From an uncultured Verrucomicrobiae bacterium (GTDB taxonomy: Bacteria; Verrucomicrobiota; Verrucomicrobiia; Palsa-1439): DNA of 64,000 bases. Where the stretch lies: NCBI GenBank assembly GCA_963812605.1, contig CAWEWF010000004.1:64001-128000 (forward strand), in the 5' to 3' direction. The notes below the pieces were generated by a model. The model was not told where the DNA came from. It did not search any database and saw only the letters and a program-made list of their open reading frames with translations. Within the stretch, counting starts at the first letter, position 1. Every line of letters starts with the position of its first letter. Positions 4,557 to 47,424 of this stretch are shown here, piece after piece. The translations under genes were made by a program, and so were the position numbers.

Positions 4557-5840
4557 ATGGACCTGATTCTTCGCAACGCGCGCGTACGCGGACACGACCA
4601 CAACGTCGATATCGCTGTCAACGATGGCCTTATCGCCAGAATCGCCCCGAAGATCACCGCGCGCCCGCGTCAGGTTATCGATTGCGCCAGTAAACTCGTC
4701 TCGCCGCCGTTCACCGATATCCATGTCCACCTCGACGCCGCACTCACCGTGGGACAACCGCGCTTCAACCAGAGCGGCACGCTCATCGAAGGCATCGAGA
4801 TTTGGGCGGAACGCAAGCGGACGCTCACGTTCGACGACGTGAAGCGCCGCGCCACGCTTGCTGTGAAATGGGAACTCGCCCATGGCGTCACGCGCATCCG
4901 CAGCCATGTCGATGTCTGCGATCCGCAACTCACCGCCGTCAAGGCGCTGCTTGAGGTGAAGAAAGAATTCGCGGGCCTCGTGGATATTCAACTCGTCGCG
5001 TTTCCGCAGGATGGCATCTACGCGTTTCCCAACGGCGAGCGGCTCATGGACCAGGCGATGGAACTCGGCTGCGACATCGTCGGCGGCATCCCGCATCATG
5101 AAATGACCCGCGAGGACGGTGTGGCCGATGTGAAGTTCGCCTGCGATCTCGCGCAGCAATATCACAAGCCGCTCGACCTCCATATCGACGAGACCGATGA
5201 CCCGAATTCGCGCTTCACGGAAGTATTAGCCGCCGAAACCATCAAACGCGGCCTCGGCGGACGCGTTACCGCCAGTCACACCACCTCCATGCACAGCGTC
5301 GACAATGCCTACGCTTTCAAACTCATTCGCCTCATTAAACGCGCCGGCCTGCACATGGTTACCAATCCGTGCGACAACAGCGTCCTTCAGGGCCGCTTTG
5401 ACACCTACCCCAAACGCCGCGGCCACACGCGCGTGAAAGAACTGCTCGCCGCCGGCGTCAATGTCGGCATCGGCCACGACTCGATCATGGATCCGTGGTA
5501 TCCGCTCGGCATTGGCGATCCCTTGCAAGTCGCTTTCGTCTGGATCCATTACGGCCAAATGAGCGGCGCCAACGAAATCCCGCAAGTGTGGGACATGATC
5601 ACGAAAAATCCGGCAAAGGCCTTCGGTGCCACCGACAAAGATTACGGCCTCATCGTTGGCAACCCCGCCGACCTGATTCTCCTCGACGCCGCCACCGAAT
5701 TCGACGCCCTCCGCCGCATCGCCCCCCGCCTGTTGGTAATGCGCCGCGGCCAAATCGTAGCCCGCACCACCCCGAGTGAAACCGTCCTCTGTCCGAAAGG
5801 GTGGAAGAAGGAAGTGATTGATTTCACGGTGCACGGATGA
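4557..5840 (+). CDS. codA: Cytosine deaminase (amidohydrolase family)
   Basis: DIHVHLD, NQSGTLIEGI, LHIDETDDP, ASHTTSMHS, GHDSIMDPWYPLG motifs. Confidence 0.92.
   Translation: MDLILRNARVRGHDHNVDIAVNDGLIARIAPKITARPRQVIDCASKLVSPPFTDIHVHLDAALTVGQPRFNQSGTLIEGIEIWAERKRTLTFDDVKRRATLAVKWELAHGVTRIRSHVDVCDPQLTAVKALLEVKKEFAGLVDIQLVAFPQDGIYAFPNGERLMDQAMELGCDIVGGIPHHEMTREDGVADVKFACDLAQQYHKPLDLHIDETDDPNSRFTEVLAAETIKRGLGGRVTASHTTSMHSVDNAYAFKLIRLIKRAGLHMVTNPCDNSVLQGRFDTYPKRRGHTRVKELLAAGVNVGIGHDSIMDPWYPLGIGDPLQVAFVWIHYGQMSGANEIPQVWDMITKNPAKAFGATDKDYGLIVGNPADLILLDAATEFDALRRIAPRLLVMRRGQIVARTTPSETVLCPKGWKKEVIDFTVHG
5746..5819 (+). repeat. Direct repeat copy 1: current codA 3' end
   Basis: 74 bp matching 6240-6313 with 5 mismatches, all synonymous. 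Confidence 0.95.
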
Positions 5841-6022: not shown

Positions 6023-6234
6023 CGAAGTATCTCATCGTTGTCGAAAAGACATCAACGGGCTATTCAGCCTTCTCGCCCGATTTGCCCGGCTGCATTGCCA
6101 CGGGCGCAACGCACGAGGAAGTTGAAGGAACAATGCGCGAGGCGGTTCAATTCCATCTCGACGGTCTCCGCGAAGAAGGTCTGGACATTCCCTTACCTCA
6201 CAGCTACTCGACGTACTGCGAACTCCCCGCCTAA
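6019..6234 (+). CDS. hicB: HicB family antitoxin (short, no C-terminal DNA-binding domain)
   Basis: YSAFSPDLPGCIATGAT.EE...EAVQFHLDGL. Confidence 0.92.
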   Translation: MTKYLIVVEKTSTGYSAFSPDLPGCIATGATHEEVEGTMREAVQFHLDGLREEGLDIPLPHSYSTYCELPA

Positions 6235-6239
6235 CGCAG

Positions 6240-6337
6240 GCGGCCAAATCGTCGCCCGCACCACCCCGAGCGAAACCGTCCTGTGTCCGAAGGGCTGGAA
6301 GAAGGAAGTGATTACGTTCGCCCCGGCACATCGGTAG
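6240..6337 (+). pseudogene. Displaced orphan 3' end of codA (direct repeat copy 2)
   Basis: Encodes GQIVARTTPSETVLCPKGWKKEVITFAPAHR*; identical to the CodA C-terminus over 24 aa. Confidence 0.9.
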
Positions 6338-6373: not shown

Positions 6374-6607
6374 ATGAATTTCGAATTATTAAGCGAGATT
6401 GCGGAAATCGAAACGATTGCCCGAGGATCGGGCATCCGTGACCTTCCCCGTCTGCGCCGCCTCTACGGACCAGGAAACTGGCGGAAACTCAAGGGCGTTG
6501 CTCGCATTCGTCTAGCCAGCGGGAGGATTAGAATCGCCTAGTTGCATTGGTATGAAGCTCATGGTACTGGTAAAAAGGAAATGAAGCGAAAACGCTACCG
6601 GGACTGA
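6374..6607 (+). pseudogene. Small basic toxin-like protein with an internal TAG (not in the ORF track)
   Basis: Manual translation MNFELLSEIAEIETIARGSGIRDLPRLRRLYGPGNWRKLKGVARIRLASGRIRIA*LHWYEAHGTGKKEMKRKRYRD; TAG at 6539-6541. Confidence 0.75.
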
Positions 6608-6610: not shown

Positions 6611-6841
6611 ATGCCCAAACGACCGCACATGAAACCTGAGTTCGTTATTTGCATCAATAACGAAGGCTATCCTGCGTCGTTGGAGTTGCACAAAGTTTAC
6701 CGCGTGATTCCCGATGCGGAGGCCGCTGCCGACGACGATATTCGGGTCGTGGACGAATCCGGCGAAGACTACTTGTATCCCGCTTCGTTTTTTGTCCTGA
6801 TCCAAGTCCCGGCCCCTGTGGAACGCGCCCTGTCGGCATGA
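6611..6841 (+). CDS. Small acidic conserved hypothetical protein, putative antitoxin/immunity partner
   Basis: FVICINNEGYPASLELHKVY...IRVVDESGEDYLYP; starts 3 nt after the basic ORF stops. Confidence 0.75.
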   Translation: MPKRPHMKPEFVICINNEGYPASLELHKVYRVIPDAEAAADDDIRVVDESGEDYLYPASFFVLIQVPAPVERALSA

Positions 6842-6956: not shown

Positions 6957-7487
6957 ATGAAATTCTCGACGCCTCCGTCCAAGACAGTGCCCTTCTATGC
7001 ACACCCGACCTTGGTGATACTTGTATCGACCATAGGGCTAATCTCTGGCATTCTCGCCGTATACACAGTTCGATTGGCCTCACAACTGTCAAGCCTGCCC
7101 TTGGGTGATCTAGGATGGCTTGGTCGGCTGTTTGAAATCGTCTGGTCCCCGCGTGCTCCTTGGGTGTCCTTCGCTGTCGGAATTGCTGTTGGCTTGGTCA
7201 TTATATCAGTGCAAAAACGCTTGTTGCGCTCTCATATCCTCTTCTATGCCGACTTTTTCACGATGCCCCTCTTGGAGCGGCTTCGTTGGGATGTGCTGAG
7301 CACCAATCTTACGGCGTGCCTACCGACGGTGGTCGGTCCATTGGTGGCGGCAGGCGTAGCCTGCGCCTTACAAATCAGCCCTTGGCCCGCTTTTTTCGGT
7401 CCAAGCATCTGTTCCTTTCTCGTCTACCCCGAGCAGAAGTTGATCTACGAAGCGACCAAGTCGCGCCTCGTATCACAAGAGGCATGA
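6957..7487 (+). CDS. Hypothetical membrane protein
   Basis: Several hydrophobic segments; GAGGGG SD; more AT-rich than the flanks. Confidence 0.6.
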   Translation: MKFSTPPSKTVPFYAHPTLVILVSTIGLISGILAVYTVRLASQLSSLPLGDLGWLGRLFEIVWSPRAPWVSFAVGIAVGLVIISVQKRLLRSHILFYADFFTMPLLERLRWDVLSTNLTACLPTVVGPLVAAGVACALQISPWPAFFGPSICSFLVYPEQKLIYEATKSRLVSQEA

Positions 7488-8654: not shown

Positions 8655-9512
8655 ATGCAACACAGCTTTGTGAAGAGACTTACGGCAATTCTTGGACTGT
8701 TTCTCGTTCTGTCCGGCGCGGCGCGCGCGGATGGCGACGAGGCGATCCCCTTTTCCGTCGGCGAAAAGCTTACCTACCAGATTTTTTGGGGGCCGTTCGT
8801 CGTCGGGCGCGCCACGCTGGAAGTGGCGGGCATCGAGCCGGTGGACGGTCACGACTGCTATCATCTCGTTGCGAAGGCGAGGACCAGCGGGTTGGCCGAA
8901 TTGCTGTTCTCGGTCGATAGCACCGCCGAGAGCTGGCTCGACCGCGACGGACTGTTCACCCGCCAGTATCATGAAGACCGCACGGAGGGCAAGCACCACC
9001 GCAATAACTACACGCACTTCAATTACGCGGCCAAGGAAACGGTCACCAAGAACCAGGTCAACGGTCGTGAGCACCATACCCCGCTTGATCAGCACGTGCT
9101 CGACGTGGTCTCGTCGCTGTACTACGTGCGCACGCAAAAACTGATGCTCGACTCCGAGCAGTCGTTCATGATCAACGCCGGCGACACGAACTATAACGTC
9201 ACCATCCGCCCCGATATGCGCAAGACAATGTGGGTGCGCCCGGTGGGCGATATCCAGGCGCTACGGATCGAGCCGACGCCGACGCTGAACATCATTTCCG
9301 CCAACAACGGCCACATGTGGTTCTGGGTCAGCGACGACGTGCGTCGCCTGCCGCTGTTGGTCAACTCCGAGTTGAAACTCGGCACTGCGAAGTTGGTGCT
9401 CTTCAGCATCACCCCGGGCAAACCTTCGTCGGGGACGACCAACAAACCCATCGACTCGGTCAAGTCCGCGCCGTTGGGCACGGCTGGCGGCGCCCTCATG
9501 TCGGAACGTTGA
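8655..9512 (+). CDS. DUF3108 family exported protein
   Basis: Signal peptide; PFSVGEKLTY...G.ATL; LDVVSSLYYVR; WVSDD.RRLPL. Confidence 0.82.
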   Translation: MQHSFVKRLTAILGLFLVLSGAARADGDEAIPFSVGEKLTYQIFWGPFVVGRATLEVAGIEPVDGHDCYHLVAKARTSGLAELLFSVDSTAESWLDRDGLFTRQYHEDRTEGKHHRNNYTHFNYAAKETVTKNQVNGREHHTPLDQHVLDVVSSLYYVRTQKLMLDSEQSFMINAGDTNYNVTIRPDMRKTMWVRPVGDIQALRIEPTPTLNIISANNGHMWFWVSDDVRRLPLLVNSELKLGTAKLVLFSITPGKPSSGTTNKPIDSVKSAPLGTAGGALMSER

Positions 9513-10496: not shown

Positions 10497-10853
10497 ATGT
10501 CCACGATACGAACTTTTCGGGATCCGACTGTGTGGCAAAAGGCTCATCAGTTCGCGTTGGTGATTTATCGTCTCACGCGGACCTTTCCCAATGACGAGAA
10601 GTTCGGCTTGACCTCCCAGATGCGGCGTGCGGCGGTTTCGACCGCAGCCAACATCGCAGAAGGCTCCGTCCGTTTTGGCAAACAGGGCAAGCTTCGTTTT
10701 TATAATATCGCCCAAGGATCGCTCGAGGAAGCGAAGTATTACTTGATACTCGCAAGAGACCTCGGCTATACGAAGAACATCGCGGAAGAGGGTAAACTGG
10801 CGGGTGATGTTGGTCGCCTGCTGCATGCCCTCATGGTTTCGATCAAGCAATGA
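10497..10853 (+). CDS. Four-helix-bundle protein (23S rRNA IVP / bAvd-like family)
   Basis: FRD..VWQKAH...IYRLTRTFP.DEKFGLTSQMRRAAVS..ANIAEG...FYNIAQGSLEE..YYLILARDLGY. Confidence 0.92.
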   Translation: MSTIRTFRDPTVWQKAHQFALVIYRLTRTFPNDEKFGLTSQMRRAAVSTAANIAEGSVRFGKQGKLRFYNIAQGSLEEAKYYLILARDLGYTKNIAEEGKLAGDVGRLLHALMVSIKQ

Positions 10854-10864
10854 ACCGAATCCTC

Positions 10865-10894
10865 GGCTACTGGCTACTCGGTTACTTGGCTACT
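10865..10894 (-). repeat. Tandem heptamer array GG(C/T)TACT x4, right arm, inverted relative to the left arm
   Basis: GGCTACT GGCTACT C GGTTACT T GGCTACT. Confidence 0.85.
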
Positions 10895-10902
10895 TGACCC
10901 CC

Positions 10903-11920
10903 ATGCAAACTCTCTCCACAAAACGTCTCGACAAAATCCTTTCTCGCTTTCCCCGCCAACGCATTCTTGTCGTCGGCGATGTGATGCTTGATCAATTTCT
11001 TTGGGGCAAGGTGTCGCGCATCTCGCCCGAGGCTCCGGTGCCTGTAGTGGAGATCACCCGGGAATCGTTCTTTCCCGGCGGCGCGGCGAACGTCGCCCGC
11101 AATCTGCGCGCGCTCGACTCGTCGGTCAGTCTGCTCGGCGTGCTCGGGGACGATGACGCGGGCGCGGAGTTGCGCGGCCTGCTCGACCAGCAGGGCGTCG
11201 ATACCGCCGGCCTGATTGTGGACCCCAACCGACCCACGACGGTCAAGACGCGCATCGTCGCCCACCACCAGCAAATGGTTCGCTTCGACCGCGAACAATG
11301 TCTTGGGCTATCATCTGCGCTGGAGCGCAAGGTCTTGGAAAGCTTCGAGTCACATCTGAAAAACGTTCTCGGCGGTCATCTTCGAGGACTACGCCAAAGG
11401 CGTTTTGTCGCAAAAGCTGCTCAACGTCCTGCAACGACGGGCGCACCGAGCGCGCAAGATTACGGCGGCGGACCCGAATTCGCGTCAGCGGCTCCATTAC
11501 TCCGGGCTCACCGTGGTCACGCCGAACCGCAGCGAGGCATTCGCGGCAGCCGGCCTGCCGTACGTCGAGCCGGACACCGAGGTGCTGCGCGATGAAGCGC
11601 TGCTGCGCGTGGGGCAAAAATTATTGCGCACCTGGAAACCGCGCAACCTGCTGGTCACGCTCGGCGAACACGGCGTCTGCCTGTTTCGTCCCGGCAAAAA
11701 GCCGCATCACATCCCGACGGTCGCGCAGGAGGTGTTCGACGTGTCGGGCGCCGGCGACACGGTGATTGCGACGCTCGTGCTCGCGTTGGCCGCCGGGGCC
11801 GATCCGATTGAAGCGGCGGAAATCTCCAACCACGCCGCCGGCATCGTCGTCGGCAAAGTCGGCACCGCCACCTGCTCGCCGGATGAACTAGTGGAAAGCT
11901 TCGAGAGAGAGCGGCGCTAG
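10903..11920 (+). CDS. rfaE1: D-glycero-beta-D-manno-heptose-7-phosphate kinase (RfaE/HldE kinase domain only); frameshift near 11367
   Basis: VVGDVMLDQF.WGKVSRISPEAPVPVV, GGAANVA, DYAKG, EVFDVSGAGDTV, split over two frames. Confidence 0.9.
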
Positions 11921-25300: not shown

Positions 25301-26985
25301 CTACAATGGCTCTCGAATATCGCGCACTTTCAGTTGGACGCTTTCCGTGCCGCCGTACTCATTCAGTTCGGGCGTGAACGCGATATCGAACGCGCCTTCG
25401 GGGAATTCAAAATCGCCCTTTCCCCACCAAATCGCCTGTACGGTTGTATCGCCATCGGTCACACTGAAGCGCAGGTGATTCTTGCCGACGATGCGGGGCT
25501 TGCCACGCAAATGTACGCCTTCCGCCGCAAACAGCGGCGTCGGGTTTTCCGTCCCACACGGTTCCAGCCGCTCCAGTTGCTCGAAAAAATCCGCGTCCAG
25601 ATCGTCAAGTTTGACCAGGGAGTCGATCCGCACCTGCGGTTGAAGATCCTCGTCCTTGAGCATTCTGCCCGCAAATTCGTTCAACATCTCGCGCAGTCCG
25701 TCAATCTTGTCCGCTTTCACGCTCAATCCCGCCGCCATCTCGTGTCCGCCAAATTTTTCCAAGAGCGGCGCGCAATGTTGCAACGCGCCAACGATGGAAA
25801 AGCCCGACACGCTCCGGCACGACCCCTTCCCCATTCCCTCCTCAATCCCGATTACCACGGTCGGTCGATGGTAGACCTGCAACACGCGCGAAGCCACGAT
25901 ACCGATGACACCCACATGCCAGCCCTCCTTCGCCAGCACGAGTATCCGGTCGCTGGAATTTGTCCGCGCTATGGCGATTGCTTCTTCCACTATTTGTCCT
26001 TCAATGCCCTGGCGCCTGGCGTTGTGCTCGTTGAGCAGTTTCGCCAATTCCGCGGCCCGCGTAGCGTCGTCGGTCAACAGCAATTTCAGCGCGGCCATTG
26101 CGTCGGCCAGTCGGCCGGCGGCATTAAGCCGCGGCCCGATGCGAAAACCTACGTGATACGGACTTACCTTGTCCGGCACATCCGCCATCTTCATTAAGGC
26201 GCGCAATCCGATTTTCTGCCGTCTGCTGGCAACCGCTCCAAACCGGCCCGCACCAGAATGCGATTCTCGCCCGTAAGCGGAACCAGGTCCGCGACGGTCC
26301 CGACGGCCACAAGATCCAGATGCTCGCGCAGATCGATCCGTTCCGCCAATCGCTTTTCGCGCTTCAAGAGGGCGTGCGCGAGCTTGAAAGCAACGCCGAC
26401 GCTGGCCAGCACACCCAGCGGTGAACCGGCAATTCTCTTGGGATTTACCACGGCGACGCATTCGGGCAATTTCTCCGGGGGCTCGTGATGGTCGAGCACT
26501 ATCGTATCGACGCCGTGCTTGTGGAGATCCGCAATTTCGCGCACGGAACTTGTGCCGCAATCCACCGCGATGAGCAACTGTGGTTGATGCTCCTTGAGGC
26601 AGCGCGCGATGCCGTCCGCACTGAGACCGTACCCTTCTTCCGCGCGTTGCGGCAGAAAGTTGGCGACCGTTGCCCCCGCCGTTTGCAGGACGCGCCGCAG
26701 CAAAGCGCTGGAAGTTACCCCGTCCACATCGTAGTCGCCGTAAATGACGATGCGCTCCTTGTTCGCAATCGCGACAAGGATGCGCTCGACCGCCGCGCCC
26801 ATGTCTGGCAGATCGAACGGATCGCCAAGCTGACGAAGCTGGGGGTTAAGAAAGGACGACGCGGCTGCGGCCGTGCGATAACCACGATTGATCAGGACCT
26901 GCGTGATGGACAGCGCGAGGTGTAGTTCGCGGGCCAGCGTTTCCGCCAGCGCTGGTTCGGGTTTGGCAATGACCCAGCGCTTCAT
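25301..26985 (-). CDS. recJ: ssDNA exonuclease RecJ; frameshift near 26220
   Basis: YGDYDVDG, VDCG, DHH, GTVADLVPL, GPRLNAAGR, GGHEMAAG. Confidence 0.95.
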
Positions 26986-34573: not shown

Positions 34574-36373
34574 TCAAAGCACCAGCCGCACGCGGTAGTA
34601 GTTGGCGGGGGTGTTGGTGGCGGCGCCGGGGTCGAGATAGTTTGTCGTTGTAAGGCCGGTGCCGGGGATAATGATGTTTCCGCTAATGTTGGAATAGGCG
34701 CCGCCGGGATCCGATGTGGACTCCACGGCGTTTGTCAGCCCGCCTGCGGTCAGCCACGTGATCAGCAGATCCGAACCTTGTAACGTGGTTCCTGTAACAT
34801 GGAACGGAGACGTACTATCGAGCGGGTTGGTTCCCAAGAGGAATTCCTGAAGATTGGACAAGCCATCGCCGTCAGGGTCCGCGGCGGCAACCGTGGGATC
34901 GAAAGGATTGAAGCCATATTGTTGTTTCCAGCCGTTGGGAATTCCGTCGCCGACTTGGCTCTTGGTCGGGTCGAGGAGCGGTTGGACAGAAAGCTCGACC
35001 TGATTGGTATCGGAGGCTGCGCAACTATCAAATGCATTTACCTTGAAGAAGTACGTGATCGGGCTGTTGCTTCCCGGATAGAGCGGAAGGAAGACGGACA
35101 AGGCGTTCGTGGTCAGCAACGGATTGATCTCTCCGCCGCTATTGGTCGCCTCGTAGACGCCATAGGTGAGCGGCGCCGTACCGGATGCCGCGGACCAGGT
35201 CAACGTTGCGCCTTCAATCGCCGGGTGACACTGCTCGGTCCCGCGAAAAGGGGCGGGCTGGCGTAGGTAAATCCGTTGGTCAGCGTTGTCGGAGGTTTAC
35301 CGGGAGTCTTGACCACGACGTTGTAGGTCCCCGGCGAGTTGGCAGCCGTGATGGCTGTCAGGGTGTTGGAATTGACCAAGGTGACACTGGTGGCGTTCGC
35401 GCCATTCATGGTGATCGTGGAGCCGTTTTGGAAGTTCACACCGCCAACGGTGATCGGCGTGCCACCGCTGGCACAGCCGTGGTTGGGGGTGACCGAGAAG
35501 ATCAGGGGCTCCTGCACTACGATAAACTGGTAAACCCGAACGTAATCCACCAGCATCTCGGCGGGCAGGCTGGCAAGGACGCTGTTCGTATCCGGATCGC
35601 CGACGTAATCGCCGCCGGTAGCGAGGTTCATGAGCAGGAAAAAACCCAGATTGAATGGGGCTGGATAAGGTTTGCCCGAGGAACTTGTCCAACTGGTTTG
35701 GGTTTCGTAAGCCGTGCCATCGACCGACCACGTGAGCGAGTTCGTCGTCCAATCCAAATCATACACGTGGAAGTTGGTGACCGAATCGCCGCTGCTGAAA
35801 TTAGTGAAGATTTGGGTCGCGTCAGTTCCGGTGTGGATGCTTCCCTGGACGAAGCCTACGTTGGCTCCATCATTCTCCACGACATCGATTTCGCCGCACT
35901 TCGGCCAGGGATCCTTGTTGATGTTGGTTCCCATCATCCAGAGGGCCGGCCACATGCCGACGCCGGCGGGCAGCTTGCGCGCCATTCGATGCGACCGTAT
36001 TCCGTCGCAAATTTGCCCTGGGTCTTCATGCGGGCGGAGGATATGGTAATCGGATTCGTGTTTTCTTTTTGGGCATGGATATGGAGGAAGCCACCGGCGA
36101 CGTAAGCGTTGTTGGTCAGGCTGGTATAGGTCTCCAACTCATTGTTGCCCCAGCCGCCAGCCCCGGTGTCGAATACCCACTTGGTGCCATCGACATTGGA
36201 ACTGGTGACGCTATTGAACTCATCGCTCCAGACGAGCGACAAGACCACGCTCTGTCCGTATGTCGCTGGGTCCCGGCGCCGAGGAATACAAAAAGCAACA
36301 GACCAGCAATCAGAGTCAGAAACGTCTGCTTGGTTGGAACGAAGAGGTTGGCAAAAAACCGTAGTGCAGTCAT
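34574..36373 (-). CDS. Secreted GH16 beta-glucanase (laminarinase-like) with IPT/TIG domain, D-rich Ca-binding-type motif and C-terminal beta domain; three frameshifts
   Basis: LVWSDEF, GGWGNNELE, WPALWM, WP.CGEIDVVE catalytic motif, SVTPNHG..GGT.IT (IPT), DPDGDGLSNLQEF, YYRVRL. Confidence 0.85.
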
Positions 36374-36441
36374 CGTGAACTGGTTTCCCTGATCCCTGTT
36401 ATGTTTCGCTTGCTCGCCCCCAAAACGCGATGCTGAAATTG

Positions 36442-36572
36442 GATGACAACGTTTTCACATAACAGACAATATCCGTAACGCGGTCATTCTGAACTGAACC
36501 CGTATCGCGCCCGCCATACTACACTAGCACGGCTTGGGATTACGATGTTAAAGTGCGATGACAACGTTTTCA
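36442..36572. promoter_or_regulatory. Pair of LacI-family operator-like sites upstream of the GH16 gene
   Basis: GATGACAACGTTTTCA exactly repeated at 36442-36457 and 36557-36572; near-palindromic with a central CG. Confidence 0.72.
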
Positions 36573-36709
36573 TTGCAGAGTCAACTGACGGAAGGAGTTC
36601 CAACGGCAAAGACCGGCCAGAGCGATAGCTTTGCTGCGGCGCCTGCTTCTGATCCGTTTGAATTTTCCCACTTGATAAATGTTTCAGAGAGTGCAAGTTT
36701 TACAACGTC

Positions 36710-37264
36710 ATGATGGAGGCGCTTCATACCGGTGTTATCAATCTTCATCTACAACCTTTTCCGGCGTTGATTGTCATCGCATTGATCCTCCTCGCTTTCG
36801 GATTGGCGGTGGTGAGTGGCTTCACTATTTTTGCGAAGTATTTTTCCGGCTGGAAGGGTTTGGTCCGAAGATTTCCTGCGACGGACGCTCATTCGCTGGG
36901 GAAAGAATATGGCGGACAAAGCGGTCTCTTTGACCGCAAGTCGCAAAGCCGCCCGTTCAGCCTCAATTCGTTATTTCTCGTTGAGCCCGCCCAGGAAGGC
37001 TTGTTGATCACCGCCTATTTCGCCAGGCGTCAACCGATCCTGCTCCGTTGGTCTGACATCCAAAAGGTTGAAGACCAGGACCTGCCCGGATGGTCGGCGG
37101 TCCTGGTGACCGCGGAGTGCGACAAGGAAAGAAAAATCACGGTGACCGTTCCCAAGGAAGCATTGACGGTTATTCGGTCAAACGTTCCCCCCGAACGCTG
37201 GCACAAAACGAACTCTTTTACGCAACTAATAAAGAGCCGCCTCATTAATCGCACCGTTAGTTGA
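36710..37264 (+). CDS. Hypothetical membrane-anchored protein
   Basis: N-terminal TM segment, then SGW..L..RF and a soluble domain. Confidence 0.6.
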   Translation: MMEALHTGVINLHLQPFPALIVIALILLAFGLAVVSGFTIFAKYFSGWKGLVRRFPATDAHSLGKEYGGQSGLFDRKSQSRPFSLNSLFLVEPAQEGLLITAYFARRQPILLRWSDIQKVEDQDLPGWSAVLVTAECDKERKITVTVPKEALTVIRSNVPPERWHKTNSFTQLIKSRLINRTVS

Positions 37265-37358
37265 TTCCTCCTTATTCTCGAACGCATCCAGGAATTATTC
37301 CTATCCCGGAATCGGACTGCTCCCTGATTGATTCCCCGTAGGGCGGTGGAAAATTTAG

Positions 37359-37859
37359 ATGGAAGAAACCTCGGTCACACGTGAGGAGAATTCTATGCAG
37401 TTCGAGGAAAGAGTGTTGGGCGCCGTCAATGCCTACCGCAACCGCCAGGAACGGACGGTGGCTGTTGCGGAACGGACAGAGCAGATGGAAGAAATGGCGG
37501 CCGAGCGATTCAATAAGATCGTCGAATCGGACGTCCTCCCCCTCTTCAATAAAACGGCGGAGCTATTGAAGGACAGTTGTACCGTTCAGATCCATCGCCA
37601 GGAGCACACGCCGGAGCGGCCGTTTGTCGTGAGCGTGGAAATGGTCATCACCCCCAGGGAAGGCGTGTACATTCGCCGGCTGCGCCAGCCGTACCCGAAA
37701 TTGGAGATCTGCCTGAGACAAAAGACGCTCAAGGTGGTCATCTTCACCGAACAACTGCGCCTGGCGAAATTACACCTGGAGGAAATCGATTTCGCCGAAC
37801 TGACCGCGGAGAAGCTGGAACAGTGCGTCCACGATTTTATTGTGGAAATTTTCCGGTGA
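37359..37859 (+). CDS. Hypothetical protein whose 3' end is duplicated downstream
   Basis: Host-like codon use; mostly synonymous divergence from the duplicate supports coding status. Confidence 0.75.
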   Translation: MEETSVTREENSMQFEERVLGAVNAYRNRQERTVAVAERTEQMEEMAAERFNKIVESDVLPLFNKTAELLKDSCTVQIHRQEHTPERPFVVSVEMVITPREGVYIRRLRQPYPKLEICLRQKTLKVVIFTEQLRLAKLHLEEIDFAELTAEKLEQCVHDFIVEIFR

Positions 37860-37868
37860 GTCCGATTG
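37757..37868 (+). repeat. Direct repeat copy 1 (about 110 bp)
   Basis: Matches 40546-40657; 14 differences over the 102-nt coding part. Confidence 0.92.
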
Positions 37869-37879
37869 CTTTTGTTTCC

Positions 37880-40326
37880 CTACTCGGAGATTGGGGACCT
37901 CAACGGACGCAAGGACGTTATTGTCGGTATCGGTGGCAAAGAAAAAGGTGCCCGCCTGGTTTCCATTGAGCTTGCTCTTCTTGATCTTGATCGTGACTGA
38001 TTTGCCTTCGCTAAGGGGATTCACCTTCTTCGCCAGAAAGGCGATGCCGACATTTGGATTGAAGGCGCTGCCCTGCCCCAACCAGAGCAGAACATAGAAC
38101 TTGGGGGTGTTTTCCACGCCGGTATTGGTGACCACCAGATCAAAATCGACCGCGCAGGTGGTATTGGTTGTCGCCTTCTTTTTATCGATCTTGGTCTTGC
38201 AGGTCTGCGCCACCTGGGTGAAGGCGAAACCCAAGGTCGCTCCGGCCTGATGAATGGTGAACGCCTGATCCGCAATCGTCATCGTGACGGTGCGGGCCGT
38301 GCCGGTATTCGCCGCCAAGGTGTAACTGACCGTGCCGCTGCCGAGGCCGTTGGTGCCGGCGGTGATCGTAATCAGGCTGCTGTTGCTGGCGGCGGTCCAG
38401 TCGCAGTTGGTCCCGTTGACGGTGACCACGACGTTGCTGGAGCCTCCCGCCGCGCTGAAGTTGGCGGCGGTCGAGTCGAGCGAGAAGGTGCAGGCAGCCG
38501 CGTCCTCGGTGACCGTGAAGGTTTGCCCAGCGATGGTCAGCGTGCCGGTTCGAGCGACGGTGTCGGTGTTGGTGGCGACGGTAACAGTGACCGTGCCGTT
38601 GCCAACGCCGCTGGCGCCGCTGGGGCCATTGGTAATGGTGATAAAGCTGTCGTTGCTAACGGCGGTCCAGGCGCAGTTGGTCCCGTTGGCGGTGAACGTG
38701 ATATCGCCAGTGGCTCCGTCCGCACTGAGGTCGACGTTGGTGAAATCGAGCGTAAAGGCGCAGGGAGCCGCCGGCTGGGTGATGGTGTAGGTTTGTCCGG
38801 CAACGGTGATTGAACCGGTTTGGACGATGGCGTCGGCATTGGTGGCAACCGTGTAACCGACCGTGCCGTTTCCGCTGACGATACCGACATCGGTGACCGT
38901 GATAAAGCCGCTGTTGCTGACAGCGGTCCAGGTGCAGTTGGTCCCGTTGGCCGTGACCACGATGTTGCTGGAGCCTCCATCCACACCAAAGTCGGCGTTG
39001 GTCGAGTCCAGCGCGAGCGCGCAGGCGACACCCGCCTCGGTGATGATGTAGGTCTGTCCCGCAACGGTCAGCGAGCCGGTCAAACCAAACGTGTTGGGGT
39101 TGGCGGTGACGGTGTAACTGACCGTGCCGTTGCCGGTGCCGCTGCTGCCGGCGGTGACGGCGATGAAACCACTATTGCTGGCCGCCAGCCAATCGCAGTT
39201 GGTCCCGGCGGTGACCACAATGTTACTGGCCCCTCCCGTCGCGTCATAGCTGGCGCTGGTGGAGTCGAGCAAGAAAGTGCAACCAACGCCCGTTTGGACA
39301 ATGGTGAAAGTCTGGCCGGCAACGGTCATCGTGCCGGTGATTTCGTTGCTGCTCGTGTTGGCGGCAATGGTATAACTCACCATGCCATTGCCGGAGCCGC
39401 TGGCGCCCGAGTTGATCGTGATGAAGCTGTCATTGTTGGTGGCCGTCCAGGCGCAGCCATTCTGCGCGGTGACAATGACCCCGCCATCGCCACCGGCGGC
39501 GGTAAACATCACGTTGGTCGGACTGATCGCGAACACGCAGACGGTCGTGCCCACCACGATGCTGAACTGGGTCTGTGCGAAGTAGGTGGTCACGCCGAGG
39601 GCGCCGGGCACGCTGTTGGTATCGTTGGATATGATCTTGATGAATTCCAGGTGCCCGGTATTGGTGGTGCCGCGCGGTCAATAACCCCGCGGGAACGAGG
39701 AAATTCGTTGCCGTGCCGTCCAACTGCCCGGGCTGTCCAAGGTCAGGCGTATTGGTGATCGTGTTACCGGATCCGTCGTCGATCTCGAAGCTGACCGCAT
39801 CATTGGTGGTCCCGTTCGTGAACGATCCCCACACGAAGACGAAGTTGGTCGAGGCGTCAATCACCTGGGCCGCGTCGAAATTCAGGATTTGTGGCGGGTT
39901 GGGATAGGCGTCGCCCGACAGAGTCTCCGCGGGGGTAAGCGTCCCGTCGTCCGCAGTGCCGATGGTCATGAGGTAGGTACCGTTGGTGAACACGGCATCC
40001 ATCGATGGTTGATCTATGAAGAGCGACTGGAACTCGAATTTGGAACTCGCGGGGTCAGTCAGTGACAAAACGACGTTGCTGCCGCCCGGGACCTGGACGG
40101 CGGCGCTGAGGATCGTATTCGAGCCGGTGCCCGTGACAATGGCCTGGAACATGAACCCGGTTGCCGACAGCGTGGGCGCGCCCGAGGTGAACTGGTCGAA
40201 CAACTGACCTTTGGCGGCTGGCACATAGAGGGTGACGTCGAAGGGTGAGGCGTTCGCGCGTGCGCTGCCGGCCAGTAACAGGACTGCCAGACATCCGCGC
40301 CATAGCCACGAACCAAAATATTTCAT
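37880..40326 (-). CDS. Secreted surface protein with five BACON-like repeats and a Lys-rich C-terminal domain; frameshift near 39672 and probably near the stop
   Basis: Signal peptide MKYFGSWLWRGCLAVLLLAGSARANA; 5x C...GG...VT...C.W.A.SN..FIT...G.G.V.YT...N...G..T.AGQT. Confidence 0.85.
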
Positions 40327-40545
40327 CGTCTCTTCCTGGTTTGTTGGAATGTCAGTGTGCCGTGATTCTGGAAAGGTCGGAAGAGGCACATGGAAACACG
40401 ACGCCAAGCTCATCACCCTCCGCAGTGGGTTGAAGTACAACAAAGCCATGCCCGACCGTCAAGTGAATTTGGGTTACTCGAAGCCGCCGGATGTATTCGG
40501 TGGCAGTAGCGCCCGAACCATCGTCGGAAGTCATTCCGCGGGCAC

Positions 40546-40657
40546 GCGTCTGGCGGAACTACAGCTGGAGGAGATCGATTTCGCCAAACTGACCGCGGAG
40601 AAGCCGGAACAGTGCGTTCATGATTTCATCGTGGGGATTTTTCGGTGATTCCGGTTG
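40546..40657 (+). pseudogene. Displaced orphan 3' end of the 37359-37859 gene (direct repeat copy 2)
   Basis: RLAELQLEEIDFAKLTAEKPEQCVHDFIVGIFR* versus RLAKLHLEEIDFAELTAEKLEQCVHDFIVEIFR*. Confidence 0.9.
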
Positions 40658-40989
40658 GCACGAATCGCCAACACATCGCCTCGGATCAATTGTCTGATGT
40701 TGAGACCTGACCCCAATTTCTCGCCGGAGAACGATGCTGCCAGCGCAAGGCTTACCGCCAGGATTTTTGGAATTGTGACGACATCGTTGGCTGTTTGAGG
40801 AGTCTAGGAGTGCAGGGGATATGGCCGTCAACAGTCATCGAAGAATTGTGATCTGCCAACGACGTGACACACAGGTTTCCGCCTGGTGTGGGTGTGCGCG
40901 GACTACCTGCTCTACACAGATAGCCTCCGATCTAAAACCATTAGAGTGCGCTCGTCCCCCAAGGGGCAGAGGAGATGCGGTGAGAAGGA

Positions 40990-41341
40990 TCAGCCGGCAC
41001 GGACGAACCAGTAATCGGCGACTTTCTTAAAGTGGACAACGGCACGCGGGCTGCGTGCCCATGCAAATCTTCCGTGCAGGCTTTTGCACGGACGACAGCA
41101 GCGCCCGGTACTGCTTCCGAAATCTAACGTTGACGAGAAGTCATCGAGCGGTTTCGCCTGGCTGTTACCAATCTCCGCTTTGCTTTCTTCCACAAGCGAT
41201 CCAGTCGCCCTTCTTGCTGTCTTCCTTGAGTTGTTTGTCCCAGAGCGTCGCGTCGTACCCGACAAGCCAGCGGGTAAGTTGCGCCACTTCCTTGGGAGAG
41301 AGCCTGGCAATCTCGGCTTCGATTTTTTCGACGGTGCTCAT
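40990..41341 (-). pseudogene. Degraded type II toxin-antitoxin pair (small antitoxin plus RelE/ParE-like toxin)
   Basis: MSTVEKIEAEIARLSPKE...WDKQLKED...AKPL, then fragments RFRKQYRAL..SVQK.ARK and HFKKVADYWFVRAG*; frameshifts and truncation. Confidence 0.7.
41039..41060 (-). repeat. Degenerate REP (family A stem) inside the toxin remnant
   Basis: GGGCACGCAGCCCGCGTGCCG on the minus strand; lacks GTAG. Confidence 0.6.
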
Positions 41342-41410
41342 GGACAAATGTTACGACATGAGGCAATCCGACTCAAGTCGCAAGTAAGCGGGGACTCCTG
41401 CAAGAAACGG

Positions 41411-41862
41411 CGGCAAGCGGGGCGCTTGCCCTACAAATCGGAGCGGCGGGGGTCGGTCGGCGGAACAGCACTTAGCAAGGGCTGCTACAGAGGAGGGTCT
41501 CCTAAAGCGCTGGACATCGGATTCCGATAATGGTATGGTTTGGGTCATGAGTTTAGGGAATCGGGAGATCGACACGCAAAAGCAGAACCGCGCCTTACGA
41601 CGCGGCTACAGGGGCTCTGAAAAACATGCGTTTCTGCGAAACGAACCCGATTTGCGGTGGCGCTTTTTTTGATGTAACCGCCAGTGAATGCAAGAGTTAT
41701 GGCGATTTGCTTCAAAATTCAAATCGGGTTCGTTTGGCGAAATCGGTGCATGCAGAGCGGTTGCGCATGAGGCAACGGCTACTTTCTCTTTCGGTACGAG
41801 TTGTAGGGCAGGCGGCCCGCCTGCCGTCGTTTCGGAATCGGCACGCGGGCCGCGTGCCCTAC
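41411..41862. repeat. Cluster of six GTAG REP hairpins, including an inverted doublet at 41803-41862
   Basis: Family A at 41411-41434(-), 41803-41826(+), 41839-41862(-); other GTAG hairpins at 41465-41488(-), 41587-41609(-), 41758-41782(-). Confidence 0.82.
41639..41735. mobile_element. MITE-like element with 16-bp perfect terminal inverted repeats
   Basis: AAACGAACCCGATTTG (41639-41654) and CAAATCGGGTTCGTTT (41720-41735). Confidence 0.55.
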
Positions 41863-41973
41863 AAAACGGCGGCAATGATGGGCACGCAATTTGGTTTGCC
41901 CGGCGGGGGGTTTTGGTGTATAAGTCCTTCCCTTCTAGGGTACCGGTGATTCCTAGAAGGAAATAGAGTTCCG

Positions 41974-43840
41974 ATGAACAAACACGCAAATGCCACGGCC
42001 AAGAGCCGGGCGAAGAACGCCGCGCCGATTGTCGAACTCGGCGCTGAACAGCACGCGCCCATGAAGGGGGCGGATATCCTCGTCAAATGCCTTGAACGCG
42101 AGGGTGTGGACGCGGTGTTTGCTTATCCCGGCGGCGCGAGCATGGAAATCCACCAGGCGTTGACGCGCTCGAAGATCATTCGCACGGTGCTGCCGCGGCA
42201 TGAACAGGGAGGCGCGTTTGCCGCGGAAGGTTATGCCCGCGCGAGCGGCAAGTGCGGCGTCGCCATCGCCACCAGCGGTCCCGGCGCGACGAACCTCGTC
42301 ACGGGCGTTGCCGATGCGTTCATGGATTCGATCCCACTCATTTTGATCACGGGCCAGGTCCCGCGAGCCGATGATCGGCAAAGGTGCGTTCCAGGAAACG
42401 GATGTGTTCGGGCTGGCGTTGCCGATCGTCAAGCACAGCTACCTCGTCATGAACGTCGAGGACATCCCGCGCGTCGTCAAAGAGGCGTTCTATATCGCGA
42501 ACACGGGTCGGCCCGGCCCGGTTTGGATCGATATCCCGAAGGACGTGCAGCAGAGCACATGCAAGCTGGTCTTCCCGGAGAAGATCAACCTGCGCGGGTA
42601 CAACCCGGACAAGCGCATCAGTGACATTGCGGTCAATGAGATCGCCGGGCTCATCGAAAAGAGCGAGCGCCCGGTCATCTACGCGGGCGGCGGCATCATC
42701 TCGTCGAACGCGAGCGCGGAACTGATTGCGTTCGTTGAGAAGACCGGCATCCCGATTGCCACCACGTTGATGGGCATCGGCGCGATTCCGACCGACCACG
42801 AACTCTCGATGAGCTGGCTCGGCATGCACGGCACGGTCACCGCGAATTACGCGGTGGACAAATCCGATTTGCTGTTGGCCCTCGGCGTCCGCTTTGACGA
42901 CCGGGTCACCGGCAAGGTCAGCGAGTTCGCCAAGCACGGGACCATCGTCCACATCGACGTTGACCCGAGCGAGATCAACAAGAACAAGGTCGCGCATCTG
43001 CCGATCGTCAGCGACATCAAGTACGCGCTCCAACAACTCAACCGGGTTGTCAAAGGCAAGCAGCAGTTCAAGGCGTGGCACGCGCAGATCGCCGAGTGGA
43101 AGAAGCAATACCCCTTCCGCTACCGCGTCACCGACGAAGTTTTGAAATCGCAATACGTCCGCGATTTCCTCAAGGGCGACATCAACGAAATCATCATGCC
43201 GCAGCATGTGGTCGAGTTGCTCAGCGAATTGACCGAGGGCGAGGCGATTCTCACGACAGGTGTCGGCCAGCACCAGATGTGGGCGGGGCAATACTACAAG
43301 TTCAAGCATCCGCGCTCGTTCCTGACTTCGGCGGGCCTCGGCGCGATGGGCTACGGCTATCCCGCCGCCATGGGCGCGAAGGTCGCGTTCCCCGACAAAC
43401 AGGTCGTGGACATCGACGGCGACGGTTCGTTCCTGATGAACATCCAGGAGCTCGCGACCGCGCACATCGAGCGGATCGCGGCCAAGGCGCTGGTTCTCAA
43501 CAACCAGCATCTCGGCATGGTCGTCCAGTGGGAAGACAAGTTTTACGATTCCAATCGCGGCCACACCTATCTCGGCGACCCGCAGAACCCGCACAAGGTC
43601 TATCCCGATTACGTCGCCATCGCGAAGGGTTTTAATGTCCCCGCCGAGCGCGTGACGCGCAAGAGTGAATTGCGGGACGCGATGAAGCGGATGCTCGACT
43701 CGAAAGAGCCGTATGTCCTCGATGTCATCGTCCCCTTCACCGAGCACGTGCTGCCGATGATTCCATCCGGCAAGACGGTCAAAGAGATCATTATCGAAAA
43801 GGATTCCAAACCGGTTCTCGGCACCAATCTCGGGCTGTAG
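41974..43840 (+). CDS. ilvB: Acetolactate synthase large subunit; frameshift near 42367
   Basis: [51 protein letters not shown]. Confidence 0.95.
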
Positions 43841-43911
43841 CCGCCCGACCGTTGGTGATGGCGCACGGTTTTTGTAGTCGGGACTCGCGGCACTCGGTAC
43901 AATCCGCCGCA

Positions 43912-45661
43912 ATGGACCGCCCTTGGATTCGGACGACGCTCGTGCTGTGCGTGTTCGCCGCGGTCTTCATCACGCTGACGGTCGGCAGTTACACGCGGCA
44001 ATCCGCAACGTCTGATGAGCCGATTCATTTGGCCGCGGGCTACACAGCGCTGCGCCTGCATGATTACCGTGTCGACCAGGAGCATCCGCCATTCCTGCGC
44101 ATGTGGGCCGCCTTGCCGCTGCTGATGTTGCCGGATGTGCAACTCGGCACCAATGACATCTCGTGGCGGACGGGACACGATTGGGACTTTAGTCATCACT
44201 TCCTGTACGAGATCAATGATGCCGACCGCTTGCTCTATCGCGCCCGGTTCATGACGGTCGTGCTCGGCATTGTGTTGGGCGTGCTCCTTTTCTGCTGGGG
44301 ACGGGAACTCTTCGGTTTCTGGACGGCGACCGCAGTCCTTGCGCTCTACTGCCTCGAGCCGAACATTCTCGCGCACTCCGGCCTGGTCACGACGGATCTC
44401 GGTGTGACGTGCTTTATTTTCGGCGCGCTCTATTTTCTCTGGCGACTGACGCGAAGGTTTACCTGCGGCAACGCAGCGGGCCTGGCCGCGTTCTTCGCGC
44501 TCGCGCAGGTTTCCAAATTCTCCGCGTTGGTGCTCGGGCCGATTGTCGTGGTGCTGTTGCTCGTTCATGTGCTGTGCGGAGGCGCATGGTCTTACCGGTT
44601 TGGCAATCAGGGCGAATTCCGTTCACTTCGACAGAAGACGCTCGCCATGATTGTTGTCATTGGATTGCTCGCGATCACTTCGTACGCCGCCGTTTGGGCC
44701 GTTTACGGTTTCCGTTACGGGCCGACGGCCCCGAGCGTCGATCTCGCGCGCGTGCAGGATAACCCGGACATTCTCAAGCATGTGCACACCGTTTCCGTCG
44801 TCGCCAACTGGTTCGACAAACATCGGCTCCTGCCCGACGCCTACACGCACAGCCTGGTCCTTGGCCAGGTCAAAGCCCAGCGCCGTACGCGCTTACTTTG
44901 CGGGCGAATTCAGCCGCACTGGCTGGTGGTATTATTTCCCCGTGGTGTTCCTGGTCAAGACGCCATTGACCGTGCTGTTGCTTTTCATCTGCGGTTTGGT
45001 GCTCAGCGTGAAAACGCGCGCACACTGGAAAAGCGAAGACGCGTTCCTCGTCCTGCCGTTGGTGATTTACCTCGGCGTCGCCATGACGGCGCACCTCAAC
45101 ATTGGTCTGCGCCACATCCTGCCCATCTACCCGTTGGTCCTGCTGATCTGCGGAATCACCCTGGAGGAAATGCGCGTGAGGTGGCGCCCTCTTTTCCTCA
45201 TGGCGCCAATTGTACTTGCGGCTGTTGAACTTGGTTTTGTCTATCCCCACTGCCTCGCGTTCTTCAATCAACTCGTCGGCGGGCCCAAAAATGGCCATCT
45301 GGTCCTGCTCGATTCGAACCTCGACTGGGGCCAGGATCTCAAACCGCTGAAACTCTGGATGGACGCGCATCATGTCGAGCAAATCAACCTCGGTTACTTC
45401 GGCACGGCGGACCCTGCCTACTACGGGATTCATGCGACACCGTTGCTGGGTTCACCCTCGTTCTTGACAGCGCAGGTGACGGAGCCGCGCCTGCCCGGGT
45501 ACGTTGCCGTGAGCGTGCAAAACCTCCACGGTGTGTGGTCGCGCCAGGCGACACTCAATTACTACGCGCCGCTGTTGGACCGAGAGCCAACCGCCGTCAT
45601 CGGTTACTCGATTCACGTCTATTGGGTTGAAACCAATTGGTGGTACAATTCCCAGCCATGA
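43912..45661 (+). CDS. GT-C glycosyltransferase (ArnT/PMT-like), paralog 1; frameshift near 44885
   Basis: SATSDEP.H, EHPPF, EPNILAH, SKFS, NIGLRH, DSNLDWGQDL; multiple TM segments. Confidence 0.85.
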
Positions 45662-47424
45662 ACTTTTCCGAACGGCAGCGCTCCGCCATTAGCTTGCTCG
45701 TCTTCGCCGCCGTTTTTATCGCGCTAACCGTCAGCAGTTACACGCGCGAGTCGGCGACCTGGGACGAGCCGCAACACGTGGTCACGGGCTACTGCGCCCT
45801 TCGGTTCCACGACTACCGCACGGATCCGGAGCATCCCCCATTCCTCCGCCTGTGGGCAGCATTACCGCGGCTCGCGATGGATGACGTCAAGGTGGATCTC
45901 CGGATGATCGACCAGACCGACCCCATGACATGGACGGCGGGAGGACAGTTCTTTTTCTGTCATGACGTGCTTTACGTCGCCAATGATGCCGACCGTTTGT
46001 TGTACCCGGCGCGATTTATGATCGTGCTGCTCGGCGTCTTACTGGGCGTGTTGCTCTTTTGTTGGTCGCGCGAACTGCTCGGGTTCTGGCCCGCGGTGAT
46101 GGTACTGGGCCTGTACACCATCGAACCCAATCTATTGGCGCATGCGCGCCTGGTCACAACCGATTTTGGCGTGACGTGCTTTACCTTTGGCACGATATAC
46201 TTCCTCTGGCGAACGACGCGGCTGCTGAGCCTGGGGAATTTATGCGGCCTGCTGGGGTTCTTTGCGCTGGCGCAGATCAGCAAGTTTTCGGCGCTCTTGC
46301 TGGGCCCGATCGTCCTGGCGCTGCTTATTGTTCGCGTCTGCCAGAAAGAGCCGTGGCCGAAGAAGCTTCGCGGGCGAACGGGCGTGCGCAGCCGGTTCGC
46401 GAAGTTGGCGGTGGCGATGTCCATCGTCGCCGCGCTTGCTGTGACGACGTGGATGGCGATTTGGGCCGTCTACGACTTCCGGTATCTCCCTTCGGAGTCC
46501 ACCACCTGGCGCTGGAATCTCCAGCAGGACCCGGGCGTGCTTGAACGCGCTCCCCTGCTCACGAAGGTCATCGGATGGGTGGACGAACATGAGTTGTTGC
46601 CAAACGCCTATAGCCAGGGGTTTCTGCTCGGACAGGTCAAAGCGCAGAAACGCAGCGGATTTCTCGCGGGTGATTACAGTCTCAAGGGCTGGTGGTATTT
46701 CTTCCCGTTTGCGTTCCTCATCAAGACTCCCATCTCCCTGGTCCTGCTCTTTCTTGCGGGCGTCGGCTTGTGTGCGGTGCACTGGCGACGCTTCCTCGAT
46801 CACAACGTCTATACCGTCTTGCCGTTGGCGGCATTCCTGGGAGCGGCGATGATGATGAGGCTGAACATTGGCGTGCGCCACATCCTGCCCATCCAACCCT
46901 TCGTGCTGCTGCTGGCGGGTAACGCCACTGCGGAACTGTACGCCAGCCAACGAAAGCCCCTTCGCGTGTTGCTGGGCGCGCTCGGTCTCCTGGCCGTCAC
47001 CGAATTCGCTTTCATTTGTCCGCATTATCTCGCGTTCTTCAACCAGTTCGCCGGCGGCCCGCGAAATGGACACCAGTACCTCGTCGATTCCAATCTCGAT
47101 TGGGGACAGGATTTGAAGGGTTTGAAGAGTTGGATGGACCAGCACCAGGTGCAACACATCAACCTGAGCTACTTCGGCACGGCGGATCCCGCCTATTACA
47201 AGATCGATTGCACCTATCTTCCCGGCAGTCCCTTTTTTGACGAGAGACTTGTGAGAGGTCCGCAACTACCCGGCTTCGTCGCCGTAAGTGTCACCAATCT
47301 GAGGGGGGTTTATCTAGGGGAACGCTCGCGGGATATTTACAAGAGGCTGCTGGAAACCGAACCGGTGGCGATGATTGGCTATTCGATCTACGTGTACCAG
47401 GTCGAGCATCCGTGGTGGCAGTAA
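45658..47424 (+). CDS. GT-C glycosyltransferase (ArnT/PMT-like), paralog 2
   Basis: Same motifs as the upstream paralog (SATWDEP, EHPPF, DSNLDWGQDL). Confidence 0.87.
   Translation: MNFSERQRSAISLLVFAAVFIALTVSSYTRESATWDEPQHVVTGYCALRFHDYRTDPEHPPFLRLWAALPRLAMDDVKVDLRMIDQTDPMTWTAGGQFFFCHDVLYVANDADRLLYPARFMIVLLGVLLGVLLFCWSRELLGFWPAVMVLGLYTIEPNLLAHARLVTTDFGVTCFTFGTIYFLWRTTRLLSLGNLCGLLGFFALAQISKFSALLLGPIVLALLIVRVCQKEPWPKKLRGRTGVRSRFAKLAVAMSIVAALAVTTWMAIWAVYDFRYLPSESTTWRWNLQQDPGVLERAPLLTKVIGWVDEHELLPNAYSQGFLLGQVKAQKRSGFLAGDYSLKGWWYFFPFAFLIKTPISLVLLFLAGVGLCAVHWRRFLDHNVYTVLPLAAFLGAAMMMRLNIGVRHILPIQPFVLLLAGNATAELYASQRKPLRVLLGALGLLAVTEFAFICPHYLAFFNQFAGGPRNGHQYLVDSNLDWGQDLKGLKSWMDQHQVQHINLSYFGTADPAYYKIDCTYLPGSPFFDERLVRGPQLPGFVAVSVTNLRGVYLGERSRDIYKRLLETEPVAMIGYSIYVYQVEHPWWQ

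Follow-up and report, generated by a model that had tools for sequence, protein, structure and literature searches.

A duplicated gene end beside a BACON-repeat protein gene in an uncultured Verrucomicrobiae bacterium: possible scar of an old insertion-duplication

Genes and repeats at the locus

The window analyzed in this study is a stretch of 64,000 nucleotides from an uncultured Verrucomicrobiae bacterium (contig CAWEWF010000004.1, positions 64,001 to 128,000), and all positions below are counted from its first letter. Our subject is a gene, here called X, whose 3' end occurs a second time as an orphan behind a single neighbouring gene, here called S. Gene X (37395..37859, forward strand) is intact and encodes a conserved hypothetical protein of 154 aa; the open reading frame (ORF) is open from 37359, and the likely start is 37395. 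Not counting the window's own protein, 25 X homologues were identified among 187 candidates, with a C-terminus that is well conserved in the alignments. The X protein had no match in Pfam, NCBIfam, PADLOC or PHROGs and no relative in PDB by profile search, and an Atlas search with the X homologue P0012 gave only unnamed clusters and no lead on function. The region 36000-37900, which holds X and the preceding gene for a 184-aa hypothetical protein, has a G+C content of 0.49-0.54 vs 0.58-0.63 in the neighbours; the G+C content at third codon positions (GC3) of the 184-aa gene is 0.61.

The repeat search of the window revealed a two-copy direct repeat of 112 nt with 86% identity (family D5). Copy A (37757..37868, forward strand) comprises 33 codons from the end of X, the stop and 9 nt beyond it, and copy B (40546..40657, forward strand) is the orphan X 3' end. 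The copies differ by 16 substitutions, of which 14 are transitions, and by no indels; the longest exact run is 18 nt, and similarity drops sharply right outside both edges. They matched each other in a blastn self-search of the window (E=1.4e-30), and copy B was also recovered by tblastn with the X protein (E=8.5e-14). In the coding part there are 14 differences in 102 nt including the stop, which make eight synonymous and five non-synonymous codon changes, and the shared flank adds two more. The original prediction, made from the letters of this DNA, had described 33 codons, a stop and about 9 nt of flank recurring at 40546-40657, and both the repeat and the counts of coding changes proved to be exactly as it said. 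Copy B carries E147K and L153P, which are absent from 22 X proteins, and is a non-functional, decaying orphan.

Two small sequence matches lie at the repeat edges. GGCAC occurs on both sides of copy B (40541-40545 and 40657-40661, counting the repeat's last G), which would be consistent with the orphan fragment, rather than S, having been inserted with a 5-nt duplication, and may also be due to chance. Across the left edge of copy A, 16 nt of X (37749-37764) show 82-94% complementarity to a motif that recurs in the BACON repeats of S (38667-38682, 38397-38412 and 39188-39204, with the codons T-N-C-A-W-T); here too chance is possible.

Gene S (37880..40326, reverse strand, 2,447 nt) is convergent with X and encodes a BACON-repeat protein, predicted to be secreted from its signal-peptide-like N-terminus. 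Its match to Pfam BACON (PF13004) has E=4.4e-11 and 43 bits vs a gathering cutoff of 25, its homologues bear PF13004 or PF19190, and it contains internal repeats of about 260-270 nt (families D1/D2). In the assembly S is split over three frames by 1-nt frame changes near 39673 and 37893. An intact S orthologue of 814 aa, P0028, is collinear with the window S and aligns gap-free in two pieces: residues 1-218 correspond to 40326-39673 at 94% identity, and residues 196-811 to 39740-37893 at 93%.

As read, the frame of S extends 38 residues into X in antisense, 90 nt of it into copy A, up to 37770. Because 18 of 18 S homologues stop 2-3 residues past an E-[VI]-P motif, the natural stop of S, judged from sequence, is the TAG at 37882-37880, 20 nt from the X stop, which leaves X and S without overlap. 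A 1-base shift at a CCCC run restores this ending (ISE and then stop). A true antisense overlap of S with X is rejected on the homologue ends, P0028 and the CCCC shift; the frame change near 37893 produces it artificially.

The DNA between the two copies (37869-40545) holds S alone and 219 nt of upstream DNA (40327..40545), presumably the leader and promoter of S. The translation of this upstream region is conserved in five ORFs from other contigs. So the single convergent gene of about 2.4 kb with its upstream region, predicted to lie between the copies, was found there. The GC3 of S is 0.77-0.81, typical of the genome, and therefore S either came from a close relative or has been resident for long.

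Right of the orphan, the region up to ilvB (40658..41973) has no recognisable gene, and its first about 50 nt are conserved in the relative P0026 in a shifted frame. It bears four repetitive extragenic palindrome (REP)-like hairpins of the form GGCAnGCG-4nt-GCnTGCC, often followed by CTACAAA, within 1.3 kb right of the orphan (41041, 41412, 41807 and 41840). The window has six such sites vs 0.29 expected; the other two are at 6338 and 63979, and none occurs in the two genomic loci compared below.

The orphan junction in relatives

The closer relatives of this bacterium were represented by metagenome proteins, and the genomic comparison covered two Verrucomicrobiia loci from metagenome-assembled genomes, L001 and L002. 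The junction between the S upstream region and the orphan is spanned by five ORFs from other contigs: P0046, P0026, P0048 and P0049, which are close to the window, and P0047, which is distant and whose S-upstream part alone gives a BLASTP E=2e-7. The orphan of P0026 has lost its stop codon, and its read-through matches the window right of the orphan in a shifted frame, so conservation extends to the junctions on either side of the orphan. P0002, a homologue of X, and P0034, a homologue of S, are each located on a contig of 19,064 nt, probably the same one.

The same ORFs bear on the possibility that the assembler stitched two strain variants of the X end into one contig. Many apparent 1-nt frame errors in conserved genes of this assembly would fit such a fault. 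The junction, however, recurs in five ORFs from other contigs and other sources, and the longest stretch shared exactly by the copies is 18 nt, too short to mislead an assembler, and we regard an artefact as hardly credible.

In L001 and L002, X is 65-66% identical, with other genes on both sides, without S and without the orphan; the gene context of X in both loci thus differs from that in the window. L001 has diverged direct repeats of its own with 78-80% identity (5887-6164 vs 8780-9057, and 5544-5729 vs 7089-7274), and these are paralogous small genes upstream of its X homologue.

Decay of the orphan

The substitutions in the six orphans (window and five ORFs) are nested. L153P is present in four of them (window, P0046, P0048, P0049), K137E in three (window, P0048, P0049), and E147K and E163G in two (window, P0049). 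Every orphan carries 1-4 residues absent from the 22 X proteins, including A136G, L138R, E147K and L153P. This nesting indicates, as far as protein comparison goes, one event followed by vertical descent under relaxed constraint. With the shared junction, it makes the duplication appear old and inherited. The idea of recent cassette traffic at X and S did not hold against the shared junction and the nested decay.

In two close relatives the orphan has also changed faster, with 2-3 times the difference of the S-upstream part beside it: 8 of 33 vs 6 of 64 residues between P0046 and the window, and 9 of 33 vs 8 of 66 for P0026. In P0048 the rates are similar (2 of 21 vs 8 of 66). The five non-synonymous changes that separate the two copies all map to the lineage of copy B after its split from P0026. 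By the Nei-Gojobori method the two copies have Sd=9, Nd=5, dS=0.57 and dN=0.068 (dN/dS 0.12). In a binomial model the data agree with constraint on copy A and neutrality of copy B (P=0.07-0.26), while neutrality of both copies is rejected (P=0.003-0.026). The 9:5 ratio of synonymous to non-synonymous changes is compatible with an origin from a donor allele or with another history.

We considered whether the orphan is kept for a function, either as the C-terminal domain of a small protein encoded divergently from S (ORF 40349-40648) or as part of the S leader, pairing with the mRNA of X. The frame 40349-40648 is open in the window and in the five ORFs from other contigs, its third codon positions have the highest G+C of the three (0.65 vs 0.52-0.53), and the orphan of P0047 is well kept. 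But the first codon of this ORF would lie some 20 nt from the start codon of S, with the leader and promoter of S inside the ORF, and radical changes stand at positions invariant in X (A136G, L138R, E147K, L153P). The orphan, moreover, changes 2-3 times faster than the adjacent stretch in P0046 and P0026, though not in P0048, P0026 has lost the stop codon, and no protein family or Rfam match was found. A retained function is therefore highly improbable.

A diversity-generating retroelement has a template repeat and a variable repeat, one of which, about 100 nt long, closes a gene while the other, diverged, is nearby. X and the orphan share this arrangement, copy A standing at the very end of X and copy B, diverged, close by. 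However, adenine stands in copy B, the would-be template, at 1 of 16 differences and in copy A at 5 of 16, and the differences are mostly transitions of all kinds. Such an element is rejected since the differences are not adenine-specific and the window has no reverse transcriptase.

A second duplicated gene end at codA

Another gene-end duplication is located near the left end of the window. A codA-like amidohydrolase gene (4557..5840, forward strand; Pfam Amidohydro_3, E=1e-50) contains the first copy of a direct repeat of 74 nt (5746-5819, family D8), and the second copy (6240-6313) opens an orphan codA 3' end (6240..6337, forward strand) that goes on with its own 8-codon tail and stop. The copies are 93% identical. 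Between them lie hicA (5837-6022) and hicB (6019-6234) on the forward strand, identified by Pfam as HicA_toxin (E=7e-23, 81 bits) and HicB_lk_antitox (E=1e-10, 41.9 bits) with a cutoff of 27 for both. The hicA ATG overlaps the codA TGA (ATGA). The inserted DNA is 420 nt long and promoterless, with 17 nt before hicAB and 5 nt after; hicAB has a GC3 of 0.60-0.62, atypical vs 0.73-0.85 in the other genes. The insert starts with GATT, the same 4 nt that end the repeat. Right of the orphan, a REP-like hairpin begins at 6338, 1 nt past the orphan stop, and two small ORFs without a family match follow (6374-6541 and 6611-6841), the first ended by an in-frame TAG with the frame open beyond it.

Intact gene, inserted DNA and orphan 3' end, the arrangement proposed for both loci, are real at both, whereas the geometry differs: the codA repeat ends 21 nt before the codA stop and the two tails, DFTVHG and TFAPAHR, differ, while the X repeat ends 9 nt past the X stop. 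When both ends of the 185 ORFs of at least 100 aa were searched by tblastn, X and codA were the only gene-end orphans in the window and no gene-start orphan was found; the remaining matches are internal repeats or tandem paralogues.

All five differences between the codA copies are synonymous and at third positions, a result with P=0.008-0.02 on the assumption that the orphan drifted from a copy made in place. Because the five are all synonymous, the pattern suggests that the copies diverged as working genes in two lineages and that one copy was imported from the functional gene of the other lineage.

This pattern bears on an origin in place without imported homology. Here an illegitimate insertion with an offset rejoin, for example by a replication template switch, would have duplicated the 112 nt, or a larger duplication of X (with or without S) would have been followed by a deletion that left the last 33 codons. 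At the X locus such an origin agrees with the inferred ancestral residues of the orphan, which equal copy A, all five non-synonymous differences falling in the copy-B lineage, and the ratio of synonymous to non-synonymous changes fits copies that were identical at time zero. The GATT at the left hicAB junction resembles a microhomology join. However, the versions with duplication and deletion require 2-3 events whose end points happen to frame a gene end, and the five synonymous codA differences disfavour drift of an in-situ copy. To our knowledge no bacterial process routinely yields target duplications of 74-112 nt, though our literature search was not designed for this question. We consider an in-situ rearrangement unlikely.

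The two loci could also be members of a class of cassettes without integrase, in which S and hicAB each carry the 3' end of a host gene as an attachment site and are mobilised again and again, through RecA or a recombinase that acts in trans. Two loci in 64 kb, compact inserts at both of them and codA copies that both resemble coding sequence speak for it. In P0047, furthermore, the orphan is well kept, the S-upstream part diverged and the junction shifted by 2-3 codons, which could reflect an independent later insertion. Against it, the junction is identical within the close clade and the orphan decay is nested, which points to one event without turnover. The two loci have no common junction motif beyond the trivial GCG and GATT ends, no recombinase is nearby, and two cases are too few for a class. 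Nor does the bias to 3' ends need such cassettes, since selection alone explains it: insertions elsewhere would kill the gene. A cassette class is very unlikely. Of the homology-driven route that had been proposed as general in this lineage, recombination anchored in gene-end homology is favoured by the five synonymous codA changes, and generality is unsupported with two orphans in the window.

Search for mobility genes

No integrase, transposase or reverse transcriptase was matched among the 68 window ORFs of at least 150 aa. Right of the X orphan, 18 ORFs read from stop to stop over 1.3 kb gave no integrase and no meaningful match. So the expected absence of an integrase was confirmed within these ORFs. 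There are no tRNA or tmRNA genes in the window and no terminal inverted repeats at the ends of the S insert (among 21 inverted-repeat pairs listed) or at codA. Rfam gave no match, either for the whole window at gathering score or for 37600-42000 at E up to 1, and 37300-40760 had no match to plasmid and phage records. The content of the window is that of a housekeeping chromosome, with ybeY, phoH, proS, secDF, tgt, recJ, clpB, bamA, dnaB and genes of ribosomal proteins.

Two candidates are rejected on these results. A transposon or insertion sequence has no transposase here and no inverted repeats at the ends of the insert, and the duplication is 112 nt long; a tRNA or tmRNA gene as insertion target is absent from the window.

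A further candidate is a decayed integrative island. Its attP would have mimicked the X 3' end, the two repeats would be attL and attR, and the integrase and the rest of the element would have been deleted, leaving S, and hicAB likewise at codA. Toxin-antitoxin pairs are typical island cargo. A surrogate gene end carried by an element and kept under coding selection would fit the all-synonymous codA differences, and direct repeats of a gene 3' end that restore the gene are a hallmark of such elements. For Prochlorococcus islands, partial-tRNA repeats and degenerated remnants lacking intact integrases are described (bioRxiv 10.1101/2020.12.28.424599). At the X locus flanking 3'-end repeats and an intact target are present, and a recombinase gene or remnant is not: neither the 68 longer ORFs nor the 18 right of the orphan contain an integrase, a recombinase or a fragment of one. 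The inserts are minimal and tight (S with 219 nt; hicAB with 17 nt before and 5 nt after), so that very clean deletions would be needed. At codA the repeat stops short of the gene end and the tails differ, and no plasmid or phage record matched. An island origin thus seems unlikely.

The same searches revealed conserved genes cut by apparent 1-nt frame changes: pfkB (10804-11920), recJ (25301-26985), a GH16 hydrolase gene in three pieces (34574-36248), S (37880-40326), ilvB (41974-43840) and a PMT_2 glycosyltransferase gene (43852-45661). Some of them are outside homopolymer runs. Because of their density, these changes are probably assembly indel errors rather than true pseudogenes. The last gene belongs to two tandem paralogues of PMT_2-type membrane glycosyltransferases (43852-47424), which are the source of the repeat families D3, D4 and D7.

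Origin by insertion-duplication

We favour, with a probability of roughly 0.55, the explanation that the X repeat is the scar of one old insertion-duplication which was vertically inherited, and not a working device or a new mobile system. In insertion-duplication a single crossover with a circular molecule leaves a direct duplication; PMC3240628 gives 14 sequenced cases with duplications of 109-950 bp. The repeats here are 112 nt (X) and 74 nt (codA) long vs this experimental range.

A segment of about 2.7 kb, consisting of S and its upstream region, would have been joined 9 nt past the X stop by recombination that used the X 3' end as its anchor. Most probably the chromosome would have undergone a single crossover with a circularised fragment whose source was a related lineage with X and S already side by side. 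Such a crossover would duplicate the shared segment, the upstream copy keeping X whole and the downstream copy being left as an orphan beside the former downstream DNA of X. The right edge of the repeat would then be the point where the synteny of donor and recipient part, and the left edge the point where the fragment was closed. Afterwards the locus would have been inherited vertically, with the orphan drifting and X under selection, and S would be expressed from its own upstream region. The codA/hicAB locus may be a second and younger scar of the same kind.

Insertion-duplication is read as fitting because the edges are sharp and the right one lies 9 nt past the stop, and it is supported because the insert is exactly one gene with its upstream region. 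The island and the in-situ rearrangement are ranked below it for the great tightness of both inserts and the purely synonymous differences at codA.

Several points weigh against this explanation. The P0047 orphan keeps 21 of 29 residues of copy B vs 11 of 26 in its S-upstream stretch, a pattern which simple neutral decay does not predict; to explain it, either gene conversion by X or a distinct event at a later time is required. The orphan ORFs were seen solely where gene callers found an open frame, so the sample is biased to well-kept orphans. No empty site and no donor arrangement was seen in a comparison limited to the distant L001 and L002. At codA, a circle of 494 bp drawn tightly around hicAB is an awkward intermediate and presupposes a donor that already had codA beside hicAB, and the all-synonymous pattern could also be produced by a later allelic replacement of codA.

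The P0047 pattern would find its explanation if S and hicAB are minimal integrase-free cassettes that have a copied host-gene 3' end as their sole mobility signal and loop out and re-enter by recombination of this copy with the host gene, so that the X end was entered more than once in different Verrucomicrobiia lineages. If true, repeated entry would explain why this orphan is far better kept than the neighbouring sequence; we think it very unlikely.

Comparison with known systems

The nearest known process is the Campbell-type insertion-duplication of E. coli conjugation experiments (PMC3240628). A direct duplication of a gene end flanks the insert there as well, no dedicated recombinase or element function takes part, and one intact gene copy is kept. 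Those events, however, were obtained under selection with a laboratory plasmid as the circle, whereas here the circle, its origin and its donor would be reconstructed from an ancient event whose copies are 14% diverged. So the suggestion that this is an undescribed system is not sustained, insertion-duplication being already described experimentally in that paper. Its introduction notes that homology-facilitated illegitimate recombination, the process compared next for Rhs and related loci, mostly results in a deletion instead of a duplication.

For the orphaned 3' regions of Rhs and type VI secretion system (T6SS) genes, one-ended homologous recombination has been proposed as origin (PMC5361080). 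The C-terminal displacement of Rhs, contact-dependent growth inhibition (CDI) as well as T6SS proteins as described there is similar in its one-sided homology anchor and in the older 3' region pushed downstream as an orphan. There, alternative toxin tips with immunity genes are displaced and the conserved core is repeated. Unlike this, the displaced end of X equals the retained end, the inserted gene is an unrelated convergent BACON gene and an immunity logic is not evident. Polymorphic-toxin displacement in these systems is therefore rejected.

Integrase islands, prophages and tycheposons in gene 3' ends share with the X locus the repeats of the 3' part of the target, the restored gene and the old scars (bioRxiv 10.1101/2020.12.28.424599). 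The X locus differs from these elements by the lack of an integrase, an ordinary protein gene as target, a one-gene insert, and long diverged repeats with an exact core of at most 18 nt.

Meaning for the lineage

For annotation, the orphan should not be called a gene, the overlap of X and S is an artefact, and several apparent pseudogenes in the window are probably 1-nt assembly errors. If insertion-duplication is the right reading, the scars record in nature a route of which most knowledge comes from laboratory constructs. It would mean that this bacterium gained genes from relatives by a single crossover in a shared gene end, without the machinery of mobile elements. Two footprints in 64 kb, one with a surface protein and one with a toxin-antitoxin pair, would then hint that uptake of this single-gene kind may be common in the lineage, and orphan gene ends could act as datable markers of gene gains.

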